Shown piece by piece: positions 2,250 to 58,884 of a stretch of DNA of 64,000 nt. Position 1 is the first letter of the stretch; each line of letters starts with the position of its first letter. Location of the stretch: NCBI GenBank assembly GCA_012965045.1, contig DTSZ01000001.1, positions 591,629 to 655,628 of the forward strand. Direction: 5' to 3'. The DNA comes from Candidatus Saccharimonadota bacterium. Its GTDB lineage: Bacteria; Patescibacteriota; Saccharimonadia; Saccharimonadales; DTSZ01. A program made the translations under genes and the position numbers. The notes below the pieces were generated by a model. The model was given only the letters and a program-made list of their open reading frames with translations. It made no database searches and was not told the DNA's origin.

Positions 2250-2307
2250 CCGGGGGTGAGAGCCTGCCTGCCGCAGGTAGGGACTTGGTCGGGGTGAGAG
2301 GACTTGG
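2250..2307 (-). repeat. Two extra copies of the tRNA-Pro 3' end. Copy 2286-2306 is an exact 21-nt match. Copy 2250-2286 is degenerate and split by a 19-nt GC-rich palindrome at 2263-2281.
   Basis: Direct comparison with tRNA-Pro 2475-2495 (tggtcggggtgagaggacttg). Confidence 0.85.
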
Positions 2308-2442
2308 TCACGTTCCGCGACCCCGAAACTTCACGTTTAAAAACTAGTTTTTAACGGAAGGTTTCCTTGCGAAATGACATTTAGTCATTTCTCACCTCCG
2401 ACTCACTCCGTGAGTTAGGAGTCACAAGTCTTCTCAAGCATT
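2308..2442 (-). ncRNA. Copy A of a tRNA-linked structured repeat family of unknown function.
   Basis: Shares CCCGAAACT, GTTTCCTTGC and TTYTCACCYCCGAC blocks at identical spacing with copy C (28277-28412). Three hairpins covary between the copies. Helix 2306-2322 has an A-C mismatch on the plus strand that becomes G-U on the minus strand. Confidence 0.55.
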
Positions 2443-2472
2443 AAAAAAACTGCCCAAATGGACAGTTTTTTT
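2443..2472. terminator. Bidirectional rho-independent terminator between tRNA-Pro and repeat copy A.
   Basis: aaaaaaactgcccaaatggacagttttttt: a GC stem flanked by an A7 run and a T7 run. Confidence 0.7.
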
Positions 2473-2474
2473 AA

Positions 2475-2551
2475 TGGTCGGGGTGAGAGGACTTGAACCT
2501 CCGACCTCACGGTCCCAAACCGCGCGCGCTAGCCAACTGCGCCACACCCCG
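2475..2551 (-). tRNA. tRNA-Pro (anticodon TGG), CCA encoded.
   Basis: Hand-folded cloverleaf: acceptor CGGGGTG/CACCCCG, anticodon loop TTTGGGA, T-loop TTCAAGT, 77 nt. Confidence 0.95.
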
Positions 2552-2608: not shown

Positions 2609-3430
2609 CTAGTTTTTTGATCTTTCAATGAGACTTGTTAAACCGCCCATTACAGCTTGCTGCTCTAAGTCTTCGTCTGGTTTTTCGTAGTAGCTTTCTG
2701 CTACTGCCAAACATTGATCAAGTAGGTTTATGAGTTTGTTAAACATATTCTCATCAATGGACTCAATTGGGTAGCGCCTATCAGAACTCAATGCTTCCTG
2801 TGTTTGATCTCCTACAAATTGAAGGCCAATTCCCTCTTCCCAGATTGGAAATAAGCTATATTTACCCGATTTAAGATCCCCTTTGAATATATCTTTAGCC
2901 GTCGGTATTTCAACGAAATCTACATCAAATTCTTCCTCAAGATCCACCGTGCCCTCATTAATAGTGTATCGCTCTAAGCATGCTGTCCAGCCGTCAAATC
3001 TAGAGATTTTTTGTGAACCCTTTTCTTTAGTTTGCTGAAAAAGAGTTATGAAAATCTCCTCATCTGAGTCCGACCAAATAACAACGTCTAGATGAAATTC
3101 TTCATGTCGTAAGGTGTCTGGGTTTGGCACAGGGCTATTAAACTTTTCTATAATGTGCACTACACGAGCGCTTTCAAAATCGAGAGAATCAGAGGCCCAT
3201 AGGGCGGCCTCGCTCGCCACACCAACATCATCGCTTAAAAGGTGAGCAAAATCGTCAAAAAGTGCGCCAATTCGGGCCTTTCTCGCCATCGGCTGAGTGT
3301 CCTCTTCAAATTGCTCCTTGGCATAGCCCTCAGCTAATAGTGCGTTTACCCAGTCGTCTGCAGTACTTTCACTCATTAGGTAGAGTAAATCATCATTTTG
3401 TTCAAATTCTGACCAAGACCGAGGCTGCAT
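2609..3430 (-). CDS. Hypothetical acidic protein (273 aa).
   Basis: Long ORF with a GGGAG RBS just upstream of the ATG. No recognisable motif. Confidence 0.6.
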   Translation of the reverse strand: MQPRSWSEFEQNDDLLYLMSESTADDWVNALLAEGYAKEQFEEDTQPMARKARIGALFDDFAHLLSDDVGVASEAALWASDSLDFESARVVHIIEKFNSPVPNPDTLRHEEFHLDVVIWSDSDEEIFITLFQQTKEKGSQKISRFDGWTACLERYTINEGTVDLEEEFDVDFVEIPTAKDIFKGDLKSGKYSLFPIWEEGIGLQFVGDQTQEALSSDRRYPIESIDENMFNKLINLLDQCLAVAESYYEKPDEDLEQQAVMGGLTSLIERSKN

Positions 3431-3464: not shown

Positions 3465-4976
3465 TTACTTCGCGTATTCGATTGCTCGGGTTTCGCGGAT
3501 TACGTTCACCTTGATTGTACCAGGGTAGCTTAAGGTAGATTCGATTTTGTTTGCCACGTCGCGGGCTAGGCGGATTGCGCTTAGGTCGTCGATGCTTTCT
3601 GGGCGGACAAATACTCGAATTTCGCGTCCTGCGCTAATGGCGTAGCTTTTTTGTATACCGTCAAAACTGTTAGCAACGTTTTCAAGCTCTTTCATTCGCT
3701 TCACAAAGTCTTCTGCAGAAATATTGCGCGCGCCTGGTCGAGCGGCTGAGATAGCGTCAACTACCCGAATAATCATTGCTTCTGGTGTCGCGGCCTCAAC
3801 GTCATCGTGGTGAGCGTGAATAGCGTGAACAATTTCTTCTTTCATGCCAGCTTTTTGAGCGAGGTCTGCTCCAATGTGGTGGTGCTTACCTTCAATTTTA
3901 TGAGTAACAGCTTTACCAATGTCATGTAGCAAGGCGGCTGTTTTGGTAATTTGAATATCGGCTCCAATTTCACCAGCTATCATTCCAGCTAAGTGAGACA
4001 TTTCGGTGCTGTGCTTAAGTACATTTTGACCGTAACTAGTGCGGAACTTCAATTCACCAAGTAGACGCTTAATGTCTTTTGGCAAGCTCGGTACACCAAC
4101 TTCACGCATGGCGTCTGTGGCTGCTTGTTCAATTTCTTTATCAAGTTGTTTGCCGGCTTTTTCGACAACTTCTTCGATGCGTCCGGGATGTACTCGCCCA
4201 TCTTTAATCAATGTTTCCATAACAATCCGTCCAACTTGTCGACGGATAGGATCGAAACAACTCAATACGACAACACCAGGGGTTTCGTCAACCATAACGT
4301 CAACACCAGTTAAACGCTGAATGGCTTGAATATTACGGCCTTCTTTGCCAATTATTCGGCCTTTCATGTCGTCAGGAAGTGGTACAGCAACAATTGTTCG
4401 CTCTGCTGTCACATCACTGGCTAGCCGTTCCATGGCGGTTAAAATAGCTTTTTGAGCTGTTTCTTCGGCGTCCTCGACAGCTGTTTCTTTAAGCTTTTCA
4501 GTAAGACTGACTAAGTCGTCTTTAATGGTTTTTTCGGTCATCTTCATTAGCTTTTCAGCAGCGTCAGCTTTTTTAAGCTTCGCTATTTTTTCAAGCTGCT
4601 CTAGTTGTCGGTCTTTAATTTCGTGGATCTTGCCTTTTAAGTCTTCTAGCTCTTCTTCGGTTTTGCGTAACGACTCTTGCCGTTTATCGACTTCTTCTAG
4701 CTTTTTTTCTAGTGATTCTTCGCGTTTTACTACGCGCTTTTCTGTTTCGGCCAACTCGTGGCGTAACTCTTTTTGCTCTTTGCGAGTTTCGTCAGCAATT
4801 TTATTAGCTTCTTCTTTTGCTTTTAACACAATGTCTGCAGCTTCGTTTTTTGCTTTCGAGAGCTTTTCGTCAGCTCTTTTTTCTACGTCACCAATTTTTC
4901 GTTTTGTTAATACACCTGAACCACCAAAGCCAATACCAATACCAGCCAAAGCGGCAATAATTGCAGCTACTTCCAT
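3465..4976 (-). CDS. rny: Ribonuclease Y.
   Basis: N-terminal TM helix plus K/E coiled coil, KH domain (GKEGRNIQAIQRLTGVDV) and HD domain (LLHDIGK). Start moved to ATG 4976, which is preceded by a GGGAGAAG RBS. Confidence 0.95.
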   Translation of the reverse strand: MEVAAIIAALAGIGIGFGGSGVLTKRKIGDVEKRADEKLSKAKNEAADIVLKAKEEANKIADETRKEQKELRHELAETEKRVVKREESLEKKLEEVDKRQESLRKTEEELEDLKGKIHEIKDRQLEQLEKIAKLKKADAAEKLMKMTEKTIKDDLVSLTEKLKETAVEDAEETAQKAILTAMERLASDVTAERTIVAVPLPDDMKGRIIGKEGRNIQAIQRLTGVDVMVDETPGVVVLSCFDPIRRQVGRIVMETLIKDGRVHPGRIEEVVEKAGKQLDKEIEQAATDAMREVGVPSLPKDIKRLLGELKFRTSYGQNVLKHSTEMSHLAGMIAGEIGADIQITKTAALLHDIGKAVTHKIEGKHHHIGADLAQKAGMKEEIVHAIHAHHDDVEAATPEAMIIRVVDAISAARPGARNISAEDFVKRMKELENVANSFDGIQKSYAISAGREIRVFVRPESIDDLSAIRLARDVANKIESTLSYPGTIKVNVIRETRAIEYAK

Positions 4977-5421
4977 AGAAGTACTTCTCCCTTTTTTGTT
5001 GCAGGACCACAATCTAAACTGTTGTAACGTGCTTTACCGCGTGAGGGTTTAAGCAAATACTATCCGGGCCGATTGCTCCCACAACACCTAAATGTTGTTT
5101 TCTCTCAAGGAATAAATCCTTGCAATAATTGTACGCTGATTGTGTTTGAAGGGCAAAGACGATGTTTTTACCTGAATTCAGCAAGCTGCCGTTTGCATTC
5201 ATTTCCACCATTTTGAGTGATCAAAACGGTGGAGCCAAAAGATCACCCTGTTCACATCTCTTGATATACTCACTGCTTGTTTAACAACAGCCTGTGGAAT
5301 GGCTAAAGCCAGTCTGAAAGTTATCTATAAGAGTCTCAGACACGTCCTCGGCTTAATTGTTGTTAAGCCAAGCATTCCTATTCAGGATCTGCTCAAAAGG
5401 GATTGGCGAGCGAAGCTCGCT

Positions 5422-21856: not shown

Positions 21857-21883
21857 GCCCAAAGTATAACAAATATACACTTT

Positions 21884-21909
21884 TTAACGATCGTAAAAAT
21901 TTGTATACT
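21884..21909. repeat. 26-bp direct repeat R1 (TTAACGATCGTAAAAATTTGTATACT) in the ruvA/PaaX-like divergent region.
   Basis: 24 of 26 positions identical to R2 at 22476-22501. Contains the ACGATCGT palindrome. Confidence 0.7.
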
Positions 21910-21915
21910 CTAATC

Positions 21916-22464
21916 ATGTCAACGCGAGCAGCAGACCAAGCCAGTGCTCAAATCCTAAAAACATGCCTTCAGCTATTAAAAGATGCTGGTGGCTTAAGCC
22001 GAGACACGTTAAAAAACACCCTCACAAAACTCGATTTTGACCTATCTAACCGTCTCGTTAATTTACGCGTAAATTCTGTAATTTTGCGGGCTCGATCATC
22101 GCAGTTTATCGAAGAAGAAAATGGTCAATTAACGGTAACCTCTGCCGGTGTACTGCAGCTACAAAAACTAATACGGATCACTGACTTTAAGTTTCTTAAA
22201 AGCCAGCCATGGGACAATAAATGGAGGCTACTAAGTTACGATGTTCCAGAAACCGAACGTCAACTTCGCAATGAACTACGTGCCCTTATTAAGCAAGCGG
22301 ACTTTACTTTATTGCAGCGAAGTCTATGGATTACGCCGTACGCCTGCGAAAAACTCTTAGAAGATTTACTAGACAACTACCCAGATTACGTACAGCTATT
22401 TATCGTCAGCTCCATTAAGGGCGACATGAATTTTAGCGCAAATTTCAAAAACTACATCGACTAA
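21916..22464 (+). CDS. PaaX-like transcriptional regulator.
   Basis: The C-terminal pattern WDNKWRLLSYDVPETERQLRNELRALIKQADFTLLQRSLWITPY matches the PaaX C-domain signature. Confidence 0.6.
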   Translation: MSTRAADQASAQILKTCLQLLKDAGGLSRDTLKNTLTKLDFDLSNRLVNLRVNSVILRARSSQFIEEENGQLTVTSAGVLQLQKLIRITDFKFLKSQPWDNKWRLLSYDVPETERQLRNELRALIKQADFTLLQRSLWITPYACEKLLEDLLDNYPDYVQLFIVSSIKGDMNFSANFKNYID

Positions 22465-22475
22465 CTATACAAAAA

Positions 22476-22501
22476 TTAACGATCGTAAAATTTTGTATAG
22501 T
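22476..22501. repeat. 26-bp direct repeat R2, embedded in a roughly 36-bp palindrome after the PaaX-like gene.
   Basis: ctatacaaaaattaacgatcgtaaaattttgtatag. Confidence 0.7.
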
Positions 22502-22543
22502 CCGAGCGCTGCACCGGTATTGATAATTCAGCGACTGGTTAAT

Positions 22544-27426: not shown

Positions 27427-27608
27427 AGGGGTGTGGTGGGACTCGCCAAAAGTATTTTTCTGGTGAAAAATCTTTTCGATCGTACTCTAGCGCCGGCGCA
27501 CTCCGGTCTTGCGAGAAGCAGACATGCATTTCTCACCCAACTGGGTTCGAGTCATTAAAACTGTCCAATTTAAAACCCGCCAAAAGGCGGGCGTTAAATT
27601 GGAGGGAC
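27427..27608 (-). repeat. Copy B (degenerate, orphan) of the tRNA-linked structured repeat, including its terminator hairpin and a tggaggga tRNA-Lys end fragment.
   Basis: Shares gtgggactcgcc, TCTTGCGA..hairpin..TTTCTCACCC, TAAAACTGTCCAATTTAAAACCCGCC...GGCGGG and AAATTGGAGGG with copy C. No tRNA is adjacent. Confidence 0.6.
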
Positions 27609-27644: not shown

Positions 27645-28151
27645 CTACTCAACGTTAAAAGTTAGAATGTTCGATTCGAAACCTTGCCATTGGAGTTTTG
27701 CTTGATGTTCGCCCGGTGGCAATTTTAATTCGTCACTAAATCCGATGTAATCACTGCTTATATCGTGAGAAAAGTCATCTACCAGCGTAAAAGGGTATTC
27801 ATACGTGATGGTTTTGTTTGAGCCGATATTTATATCTGTAAGCGCATCACCACAGGCATAGTACAGACCAATTGGTTGTTCATTTATATAAAACGTACCC
27901 TCGGTACATGTGGAAGAAAACGTATATGTTTTTGCACTTGTTGTTGGGTTGTTAATGAATGACTTGAAGGTAATTGATTCACCTATTGAATAGATGCTTT
28001 TGTGTAATCCTAGTTGTATATTCAACTCCCCATTCGTAGGTTCAGATACATTCTCATGTTTGACAAGCTTAGTCATTACTAAAAATAAACCAACTCCAGC
28101 TACTATTGCAATCAATAAAGCAATGATAGTAATTTTAACTTTTTTACTCAT
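27645..28151 (-). CDS. Small N-terminally anchored secreted protein (168 aa) lying between repeat copies B and C.
   Basis: N-terminal TM (ITIIALLIAIVAGVGLFLVM). The beta-rich body has weak resemblance to BsuPI-type inhibitor folds, at low certainty. Confidence 0.6.
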   Translation of the reverse strand: MSKKVKITIIALLIAIVAGVGLFLVMTKLVKHENVSEPTNGELNIQLGLHKSIYSIGESITFKSFINNPTTSAKTYTFSSTCTEGTFYINEQPIGLYYACGDALTDINIGSNKTITYEYPFTLVDDFSHDISSDYIGFSDELKLPPGEHQAKLQWQGFESNILTFNVE

Positions 28152-28222
28152 GACTTAACTATAACAAAAATGCTACAACATTAGTTGCGGCATTCTCATT
28201 TGAGTTATGATTTTGACCATAT

Positions 28223-28252
28223 AAAAACACCTACGGCGAGATAGGTGTTTTT
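28223..28252. terminator. Bidirectional terminator hairpin.
   Basis: aaaaacaccta-cggcgaga-taggtgttttt. Confidence 0.65.
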
Positions 28253-28255
28253 ATA

Positions 28256-28441
28256 TGGAGGGTCCAGTGGGACTCGCCCACATTCTGCGGGCCCGAAACT
28301 ACGTCTTTCAAAACAAGTTTTGAAGAGTAAGTTTCCTTGCAAACTGCTCCCAGCAGTTTTCACCCCCGACACTACGTGTCGTGGCTTCGACCCAGTAAAA
28401 CTCTCCAATTTAAAAACCCGCCATTCGGCGGATTCATAAAT
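28256..28441 (-). ncRNA. Copy C of the tRNA-linked structured repeat. It starts behind the tRNA-Lys terminator and ends in an exact 21-nt copy of the tRNA-Lys 3' end (28256-28276).
   Basis: See copy A. Helix 28276-28292 again has an A-C mismatch on plus that becomes G-U on minus. Terminator hairpin ccgcc-attc-ggcgg at 28418-28431. Confidence 0.55.
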
Positions 28442-28518
28442 TGGAGGGTCCAGTGGGACTCGAACCCACGACACCCTGCTTAAAAGGCAGGTGCTCTAAC
28501 CAGCTGAGCTATGGACCC
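28442..28518 (-). tRNA. tRNA-Lys (anticodon TTT), CCA encoded.
   Basis: Hand fold: acceptor GGGTCCA/TGGACCC, anticodon loop CTTTTAA, T-arm GTGGG-TTCGAGT-CCCAC, 77 nt. Confidence 0.95.
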
Positions 28519-58807: not shown

Positions 58808-58884
58808 TGGTAGCGGCAGGTGGAATTGAACCACCGACCTCAGGCTTATGAGTCCTGCGCTCTAACCATCTGAGCTATGCCGCC
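58808..58884 (-). tRNA. tRNA with a CAT anticodon, either elongator Met or lysidine-modified Ile2. CCA encoded.
   Basis: Hand fold: acceptor GGCGGCA/TGCCGCT, anticodon loop CTCATAA, T-arm GGTGG-TTCAATT-CCACC. It lacks the initiator features (no C1-A72 mismatch, no GGG/CCC anticodon stem). Confidence 0.9.

Follow-up and report, generated by a model that had tools for sequence, protein, structure and literature searches.

The 64,000-nt stretch of Candidatus Saccharimonadota DNA analysed here (positions 591,629 to 655,628 of contig DTSZ01000001.1, assembly GCA_012965045.1; hereafter the window) carries behind its tRNA-Pro gene a short element in which an 88-nt hairpin-rich module, here called M, is embedded in partial copies of that same tRNA. 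M belongs to an uncatalogued, Saccharibacteria-wide family of structured sequences. The tRNA-Pro(TGG) gene, intact and with its CCA encoded, lies on the minus strand at 2475..2551 (ARAGORN; Rfam tRNA, 63 bits; k-mer search), as do all of the element features given below in window coordinates. Its final 21 nt (C56-A76; 2475-2495) form a proximal repeat, and the k-mer search finds this sequence, CAAGTCCTCTCACCCCGACCA in minus sense, at only one other place, the distal repeat at 2286..2306, as a preliminary description of this DNA had reported. The 22-mer that extends the repeat occurs once, and the chance expectation for a given 21-mer is about 3e-8 in 128 kb.

Between the two repeats, read away from the tRNA, comes a palindromic, terminator-like segment made of an A-run, a hairpin and a T-run (TERM1; 2441..2474), recognized from its sequence and fold and not called by the consensus terminator scan. 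It is followed by a degenerate inverted copy of tRNA-Pro positions 66 to 50 (UUGAGAAGACUUG, uga, CUCC; 2418..2437) and by hairpin H1 (ACUCAC gga GUGAGU; 2395..2415) leading into the variable loop and the 5' strand of the T-stem, here copied in sense (GUCGGAGG; 2395-2402). M itself (2307..2394; covariance model R1, 99 bits, E 1.5e-22) stands in place of U54-U55 of the partial tRNA copy and consists of UGA, hairpin H2 and GCAAG (2366-2394), hairpin H3 (2325-2365), GGG (2322-2324) and hairpin H4 with a conserved G.U pair (2307-2321); in the predicted fold the inverted tRNA copy pairs with both flanks of the module. Past the distal repeat, a third and degenerate copy covering tRNA positions 56-71 can be read from the sequence at 2250..2287, much as first described; it shares the CA of the second copy, and an 18-nt insert able to form a hairpin, CTACCTGCGGCAGGCAGG, interrupts it.

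A second full element (28256..28441; R1 99 bits, exact repeat and fold) follows the intact tRNA-Lys(TTT) gene at 28442..28518 (ARAGORN, Rfam and k-mer search), the final 21 nt of which occupy 28442-28462. Its parts come in the same order: TERM1 (28408-28441), inverted tRNA copy (28376-28407), sense positions 44-53 (28363-28372), M (28277-28362) and an exact 21-nt repeat of the tRNA end (28256-28276), 186 nt downstream of the copy that begins at 28442; a second terminator (28220-28255) comes next. The homology of the two cores noted at first reading is sound (74% identity over 77 nt; both score 99 bits with R1), and two conserved blocks are present in each (2322-2330 and 2361-2370; 28292-28300 and 28331-28340), separated by 30 nt and not by 31 as then stated. 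Folded independently, the two window copies arrive at one and the same architecture (z-scores -6.7 and -4.2).

A covarying module family attached to tRNA genes

A pattern scan with the two conserved blocks as query, over one genome per species, returned at least 120 matching stretches; the locus counts that follow refer to the matches listed. At least 106 of these lie in Saccharibacteria-type metagenome-assembled genomes (MAGs), and the other 14 are chance hits in unrelated phyla that lack any other feature of the element. No match was found in viral contigs by the pattern scan or in phage and plasmid records by blastn, and a phage or plasmid origin was rejected on these grounds. Model R1 recovered 111 copies in 100 Saccharibacteria loci, including extras missed by the pattern, and in 57 cases the core starts about 95-120 nt past a tRNA, read on the tRNA strand. 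Among 152 tRNAs in Saccharibacteria loci, the window included, 59 have a module downstream (within 260 nt), 29 upstream and 64 none, proportions that are biased by the way in which the loci were found. The tRNAs concerned represent more than 30 anticodons (Lys, Leu, Pro, His, Met, Gly, Gln, Val, Arg, Glu, Ala, Ser, Ile, Phe, Thr and Trp among them), and genomes hold multiple copies. An exact 20-22-nt copy of the local tRNA 3' end, beginning 15-17 nt past the core, is present in about 30 loci, with 174-200 nt between the two tRNA-end copies. The test proposed at first reading, whether homologues always follow a tRNA and always end in its own last 21 nt, is answered largely in the affirmative by the 59 downstream modules and by these 30 or so loci.

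Across 102 distinct copies, M forms three hairpins around a junction of invariant bases (G|UGA...GCAAG-GAAAC...GUUUC-GGG), with compensatory double changes at 24 of the 34 predicted pairs. Paired cells amount to 96.9%, against 79.8% in shuffles, and the covariation score is 0.460 compared with 0.144 for shuffled alignments, none of 500 shuffles reaching the observed value and slid controls remaining at or below 0.072. Three hairpins of like geometry had been recognized in the two window copies at the outset; covariation across the 102 homologues is seen for the first (H2) and the third (the inner part of H3), whereas the second (ctcac/gtgag) is tRNA variable-loop sequence paired with its own inverted copy and lies outside the conserved module. 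This H1-type construction recurs in the 57 loci aligned side by side, built each time from the sequence of the tRNA at hand. The 5' junction G-UGA, within GGUGAGA, is invariant and GC...GU in H4 nearly so, neither having been demanded by the search.

The structure is also oriented. Pairing reaches 96.9% on the tRNA strand and 92.8% on the opposite strand, and one pair of H4 is G.U in 92 and G-C in 8 of the 102 copies, which places M on the tRNA strand. The argument for a minus-sense molecule, first drawn from a single A-C versus G-U pair in helix 2306-2322, thus holds for the family in general. Covarying structure combined with strand asymmetry is what a structured non-coding RNA (ncRNA) would be expected to display. 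At the gathering thresholds of Rfam 15 only the three tRNAs pass in the window, and no family matches M at either gathering or permissive E-value thresholds; the permissive matches are weak, leave M uncovered, score less than half the gathering value and, for the best of them, are driven by the terminator hairpin. Assignment of M to a known RNA family was rejected on this basis.

The layout around the module is common to the 57 aligned loci: an intact tRNA, a terminator (A-run, hairpin, T-run) whose sequence is unconserved and whose equivalent segment differs at each locus, an inverted copy, a sense stub, M and the repeat. The inverted copy opens with TGG, after which that tRNA appears in degenerate, reverse-complemented form, running from position 76 back to around 44. 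A loop of 3-8 nt divides it from the sense stub, which comprises the variable loop and the 5' strand of the T-stem (positions 44-53), and 3' of M the tRNA sequence resumes at (U55)C56 and runs to A76, exact or decayed. M accordingly occupies the place of U54-U55 in a truncated copy of the neighbouring tRNA, and it is because of this setting that the element ends in that tRNA's own last 21 bases. Identity of the inverted copy to local tRNA positions 41-76 ranges from 45 to 96% per position at the family level, being highest at positions 44-61 and lowest along the acceptor segment, and dipping at position 53. Its mean local score is 12.0 at element-bearing tRNAs, 7.9 at tRNAs without M and 7.0 in controls; an inverted copy as a general feature of Saccharibacteria terminators was rejected, this feature being confined to element-bearing tRNAs. 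Pairing of the inverted copy with the distal repeat gives a long-range closing helix in the predicted folds of both window copies. The element ends are not inverted repeats, and no copy in the family comparison contains a perfect inverted repeat.

The exact T-loop-to-CCA copy that ends the element in some 30 loci could be taken for a mimic of the tRNA 3' end, that is, a minihelix with a free NCCA tail serving as decoy or substrate for the CCA-adding enzyme, RNase P, synthetases or toxins. Such a reading had been drawn from a 12-bp acceptor/T-stem-like helix, and this helix is real in the Pro copy (-20.5 kcal/mol); T-stem pairing of the two flanks is, moreover, always possible by construction. 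As a family trait, however, the helix does not survive comparison, its mean of -10.1 kcal/mol being hardly distinct from the -9.8 obtained with mismatched partners, and the acceptor-like duplex was set aside as peculiar to the tRNA-Pro copy. The acceptor part is the most degenerate part of the inverted copy, upstream-type copies (see below) have no 3' acceptor strand at all, and five loci (L027, L056, L067, L102 and L035) have lost the CCA and acceptor strand with M intact. Decay of the distal repeat where M is intact indicates that the 3' end is not the conserved part, and we consider mimicry the least probable of the explanations discussed here.

The window contains further features of the same and of other kinds. 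A third element of the tRNA-Lys series, older and decayed (27427..27606; repeat family D16; R1 15.7 bits, E 0.039), comprises a CCCTCCA remnant of the tRNA-Lys end (27600-27606), a terminator resembling that of the first Lys element (27568-27599), an inverted copy and sense stub (27536-27567), a variant module in which H2 and GCAAG are retained and H3 is replaced (27446-27535) and a decayed repeat (27427-27445). This copy, the inverted tRNA copy and the T-loop setting of the module were all overlooked in the preliminary description. Between the two Lys elements lies a 168-aa open reading frame (ORF; 27645-28151, minus strand) with no Pfam match, flanked on one side by a full tRNA-Lys 3'-end copy and on the other by the 7-nt CCCTCCA remnant; it has the look of a short cargo segment acquired at the end of the tRNA. 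No comparable element was found by the R1 search of the window at tRNA-Met (58808-58884). The 273-aa protein encoded beside tRNA-Pro (2609-3430, minus strand) is without a Pfam domain and matched only itself among 5.8 billion sequences; a synteny analysis through this gene was abandoned for that reason. We also note a pair of 40-nt repeats (21871-21910 and 22463-22502; 83% identity, 592 nt apart), both palindromic around TTAACGATCGTAAAA and unrelated to the tRNA elements.

Settings, history and possible origins of the elements

In about 15 loci (L073 among them) M lies 38-72 nt upstream of an intact tRNA, within a pseudo-copy of its 5' part. It follows the T-stem 5' strand at tRNAs for Gln, Lys and Trp and the CUGGGG of the anticodon loop at Pro-GGG, and it sits in the D-arm at Gly-GCC and Pro-TGG and in the D-loop at Glu (L071, L076). 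Past M, the T-loop cases have a few tRNA bases and then their own reverse complement, and those in the D-arm likewise continue with tRNA bases that lead into a hairpin; the upstream type is the downstream topology, permuted. In five loci a second M-like module comes directly after ...AGUUUCGGG of an outer M, where it supplants the opening two bases of that M's H4. All sites have similar junctions (5' G|UGAG; 3' GAC|C or GG|U), and at the T-loop, D-arm and nested sites compared the module takes the place of two target bases. No complete tRNA gene was found to contain M: the tRNA copy around it is always truncated, to positions 44-76 or 1-62, and an intact gene stands alongside. The layout is also shared by at least four further modules of unrelated sequence (M-II to M-V), together with junction variants of M (L038, L063, L112, L045, L032, L089, L117, L111 and L040), as seen downstream of tRNA-Pro(TGG) 3871-3947 in L038, tRNA-Ser(GCT) 429-521 in L063 and tRNA-Ser(GGA) 1035-1126 in L112; their boundaries within the T-loop differ from those of M. 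Two side observations concern tRNA-like sequence at such loci. One is the presence at L030:7587-7860, directly upstream of an intact tRNA-Gln(CTG), of two identical tandem copies of pseudo-tRNA-Gln with M (period 182 nt); the other is a set of overlapping ARAGORN calls of tRNA-Arg(TCG) on both strands at L040:4834-4924, suggestive of palindromic tRNA-like sequence.

While the flanks match the local tRNA at every element, the sequence of M is uncoupled from tRNA identity. Of 55 copies of M, 5 have their nearest relative beside a tRNA for the same amino acid, where chance alone predicts 5.2. The tRNA-Lys of L094 and the tRNA-Thr of L109 carry identical copies, and one consensus type is common to different species and tRNAs. 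Elements are also retained at orthologous loci. Seven species share an orthologous tRNA-Lys(TTT) locus with an ATP-grasp gene as neighbour (the window, L024, L035, L067, L092, L094 and L102), and the covariance-model searches give M at least 95 bits in all seven, the distal repeat having decayed beside an intact M in three of them (L067, L102 and L035). At tRNA-His, L007 is empty and L028 is filled with a new terminator, an inverted copy, a variant M and a 21-nt repeat, all of which lie ahead of the same original terminator as in L007. At L011 the first terminator reproduces the second at 43/43 positions, the orthologous L015 retaining a different first terminator, a difference from which we infer gene conversion between the direct repeats; such conversion would explain why the 21 nt are so often exact. 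A 21-nt target-site duplication was considered and rejected, in that the first terminator of L028 is new and elsewhere the identity runs on through the terminator, which fits gene conversion better. Taken together there are signs that M elements inserted in the past into the loops of tRNA-like hairpins, and since no copy has a perfect inverted repeat, no very recent event is seen.

Direct repeats that run from halfway along the T-loop to the 3' end of a tRNA are also what T-loop-targeting genomic islands leave behind (PMC3146451), and the element might accordingly be a decayed remnant of integrase-borne islands, the repeats being the attachment sites attL and attR and the hairpins terminators or leftovers. 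Such repeats are exact over 21 nt at both window tRNAs and over 20-22 nt in about 30 loci, and one locus, L061, does hold an island of 4.3 kb, flanked by tRNA-Gln on one side and by M with a 22-nt repeat on the other; L060 has the same repeat spacing and probably carries a similar island. Cargo between repeats is further seen in L013, L034 and near the window tRNA-Lys. The L061 island encodes a 569-aa large serine recombinase (L061:1888-3597, minus strand), the 3' end of whose gene runs antisense through the tRNA and whose family numbers 7311 homologues, many of them 74-95% identical. The island thus has the arrangement which, according to the preliminary description, would mark the element as an att remnant. 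In six further contigs, however, a gene of this family borders the 3' end of a tRNA (Gln-TTG, Gln-CTG or Leu-TAG), with neither M nor a distal repeat within 10 kb, and the serine recombinase was rejected on their evidence as mobiliser or parent island of M. We conclude that the islands are a separate tRNA-targeting element which in L061 and L060 stands beside M by chance, and that M is not their remnant.

The wider comparison points the same way. The 168-nt and 185-nt segments between the window repeats are free of genes, no recombinase domain is encoded by the ORFs on either side of the two elements (tyrosine recombinases were not sought window-wide), tblastn of the L061 serine recombinase against the window gave no match, and ORF clustering of the 106 listed loci revealed no recurrent recombinase or transposase near M. 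A decayed remnant would not be expected to show 24 covarying pairs, invariant junction bases and a constant spacing of 174-200 nt; a single attP cannot yield the same core with each tRNA's own flanks at more than 30 anticodons, M similarity being independent of tRNA identity; and the upstream, D-loop and anticodon-loop contexts do not fit. We regard the att-remnant explanation as largely refuted and very unlikely. What does stand of the earlier reading is a structured, minus-sense, RNA-like family that is tied to tRNA genes and carries the 3' end of its neighbour; the mimic and att interpretations offered with it do not.

The recombinase family is itself of some interest. It is also encoded at L083:3601-5208, L038:6135-6833 and L121-L126, always by a gene convergent on a tRNA (Gln-TTG, Gln-CTG, Leu-TAG, Arg-TCT or Ala-CGC) whose 3' end runs antisense through it, and enzymes that are close relatives occur at different tRNAs. 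The L061 island contains two pairs of 100% complementary inverted repeats, one of 165 nt (1987-2151 with 3714-3878) and one of 120 nt (3874-3993 with 4981-5100), which could be invertible segments or an artefact of MAG assembly.

The combination of a conserved scaffold with locus-specific segments matching the adjacent tRNA is reminiscent of guide RNAs such as omega-RNA, bridge RNA and snoRNA. M would in that case be a protein-binding scaffold, and the tRNA-derived segments would steer a nuclease, recombinase or modifying enzyme to the tRNA or its gene; a scaffold followed by a 21-nt 3' segment also has what we take to be the geometry of a TnpB omega-RNA. No TnpB, IscB, IS110-type or other recurrent gene adjoins M, however: neither tnpB nor iscB is found beside the window elements or among the recurrent ORF families of the 106 loci, of which the ten largest were read. 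Being mutually complementary, the sense and antisense segments would form a duplex in cis; the flank that matches the tRNA lies 3' of M in downstream-type elements and 5' of it in upstream-type ones; and a 3' guide with the sequence of the tRNA sense strand would be directed at the intact gene already in residence. There is, in our judgement, little prospect of a guide function. A protein partner was likewise sought by all-against-all clustering of the ORFs of the 106 listed loci, an approach that yielded only syntenic housekeeping genes and was given up.

We favour, with about even confidence, a reading of M as an ncRNA that uses tRNA units for its expression and stabilization and belongs to a tRNA-scaffolded family of mobile origin. 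Under this proposal tRNA genes would act as an expression and processing platform, M being transcribed from the tRNA promoter either by read-through (downstream type) or as part of a leader (upstream type); no promoter-like site was found between TERM1 and M, and one is present upstream of the tRNA. The tRNA-derived helices and the CCA-type end would stabilize M, the inverted tRNA copy would close the structure by pairing with both flanks, and M would have a function of its own, with a protein or ligand expected at the junction. Past spread may have proceeded by insertion after a G in the loops of tRNA-like hairpins, a process that would account for the nested copies and for the D-, anticodon- and T-loop sites alike, the element bringing its own terminator (as the comparison of L007 and L028 suggests) and surviving only where an intact tRNA copy remained alongside. 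The exact 21 nt would then represent the 3' arm of the scaffold, held identical to the live tRNA by gene conversion, and not a fresh att site. Fold-back copying is the simplest idea for the sense, antisense, sense arrangement.

Several points weigh against this proposal. TERM1 resembles a strong terminator, so that read-through is an assumption. The blocks GCAAGGAAAC and AGUUUCGGG are invariant partly by ascertainment, the search pattern having required both, and variants such as GGACGGGAAUC do occur (L028, L064, L104). The L007/L028 pair could be a gain or, equally, a precise loss by recombination between the repeats. No perfect-inverted-repeat copy, which would mark a recent insertion, was found. 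That unrelated modules occur in the same architecture implies that this architecture is made by a process and not by the needs of one RNA, and covariation and conserved junctions are also expected of cis-acting hairpins of a selfish element operating on single-stranded DNA (ssDNA).

The last point introduces the main rival, which we rate as clearly less probable than the proposal above and still as a serious possibility: that the elements are selfish, non-autonomous mobile DNA, akin to miniature inverted-repeat transposable elements (MITEs), repetitive extragenic palindromes (REPs) or palindrome-associated transposable elements (PATEs), and have no RNA function. The hairpins would be ssDNA signals in cis for an enzyme encoded elsewhere and the tRNA copies by-products of insertion. 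Nested copies with identical junctions, insertion into three different tRNA loops and always after a G, the uncoupling of M from tRNA identity (with L094 and L109 identical), the several unrelated modules in one architecture and the multiple copies per genome are all suggestive of such an origin. Less easily accommodated are the absence of any transposase or recombinase recurring near the element in the 106 listed loci and of the element from the viral, phage and plasmid collections scanned, the lack of recent copies, the inverted copy being always degenerate, and the orientation, which is always that of the tRNA, with its conserved G.U pair. The elements have, in addition, been retained across species in genomes of about 0.9 Mb even though the flanking direct repeats permit precise loss. 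The ncRNA and selfish-element readings are not mutually exclusive. A rather improbable idea is that M and the modules sharing its architecture are mobile RNAs that invade loops; in a variant of it, the module is a scaffold whose tRNA-derived arms program a partner enzyme toward one tRNA. For the mobile RNAs, entry would be after a G into exposed tRNA loops at the RNA or single-strand level, and return to the genome would be by fold-back copying, which would itself create the sense, antisense, sense arrangement together with an intact tRNA.

Relation to known systems

Retention of several copies, one per tRNA gene, by Saccharibacteria genomes of about 0.9 Mb under strong reduction speaks for either a genuine function or a parasite of unusual persistence. 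Independently of which applies, partial tRNA copies of this kind can mislead tRNA annotation, as well as island callers that treat tRNA-end repeats as att sites. Our search of the literature found no description of the element. The closest reports, neither of which fits, concern group I introns carried by tRNA genes in Patescibacteria (PMC13011429) and the ssrA islands of Dehalococcoides, in which the CcrB-like serine recombinase DsiB targets the T-loop and a 20-bp repeat results (PMC3146451). With the latter the element shares a repeat of about 20 nt from the mid T-loop to the 3' end of an RNA gene, tandem series of repeats and small repeat-bounded units without a recombinase (cis-mobilisable elements) (PMC3146451), and in L061 one related locus has such an island between its repeats. 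Unlike the ssrA islands, almost all M copies lack a recombinase in or near them, the unit is a constant of about 190 nt with a covarying three-hairpin module and an inverted tRNA copy, and one core is joined to each tRNA's own flanks at more than 30 anticodons and also appears upstream and in D- and anticodon loops. The group I introns are likewise structured RNA insertions in the loops of tRNA genes, and of the same phylum (PMC13011429); at 88 nt M is far below group I size and has no Rfam intron match, and, being found only in truncated copies beside an intact gene, it is evidently not spliced out.

MITEs, REPs and bacterial interspersed mosaic elements, the IS200/IS605-derived PATEs and the Rickettsia palindromic elements are short, multi-copy, hairpin-rich and non-coding, as are the elements described here, and with them they also share nested insertions and a consensus-like 'master' sequence present in many copies. 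The present elements differ in having no terminal inverted repeats, a fixed orientation relative to the tRNA and, in place of a fixed short duplication, a repeat of 21-22 nt that in some loci reaches about 64 nt. They target a tRNA loop, of which they have long copies in both sense and antisense, no cognate transposase was found in our survey, and the conserved G.U pair and invariant junction bases of M are typical of a folded RNA. The tRNA-derived helices, the CCA-type end and the placement in a tRNA transcription unit, on the other hand, recall tmRNA, the YrlA Y-RNA-like RNAs, viral tRNA-like structures and the small RNAs (sRNAs) of tRNA 3' trailers. M is unmatched by the Rfam models of tmRNA, YrlA and the viral tRNA-like RNAs, and its tRNA part, in place of a conserved tRNA-like domain, is a truncated copy of the neighbouring gene, dispensable in some orthologues.

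Structured-RNA motifs and tRNA-linked repeats are both kinds already known. Absence from Rfam together with strong covariation makes M a candidate for a new RNA class, possibly a protein- or ligand-binding junction or a ribozyme, and an architecture common to at least five unrelated modules may show how minimal genomes give rise to sRNAs and express them from tRNA units, or may reveal a new mode of tRNA-gene targeting. The process behind it has a modest chance of being new; should the loop-invading or arm-programmed reading be true, M would represent a kind of element undescribed in bacteria.

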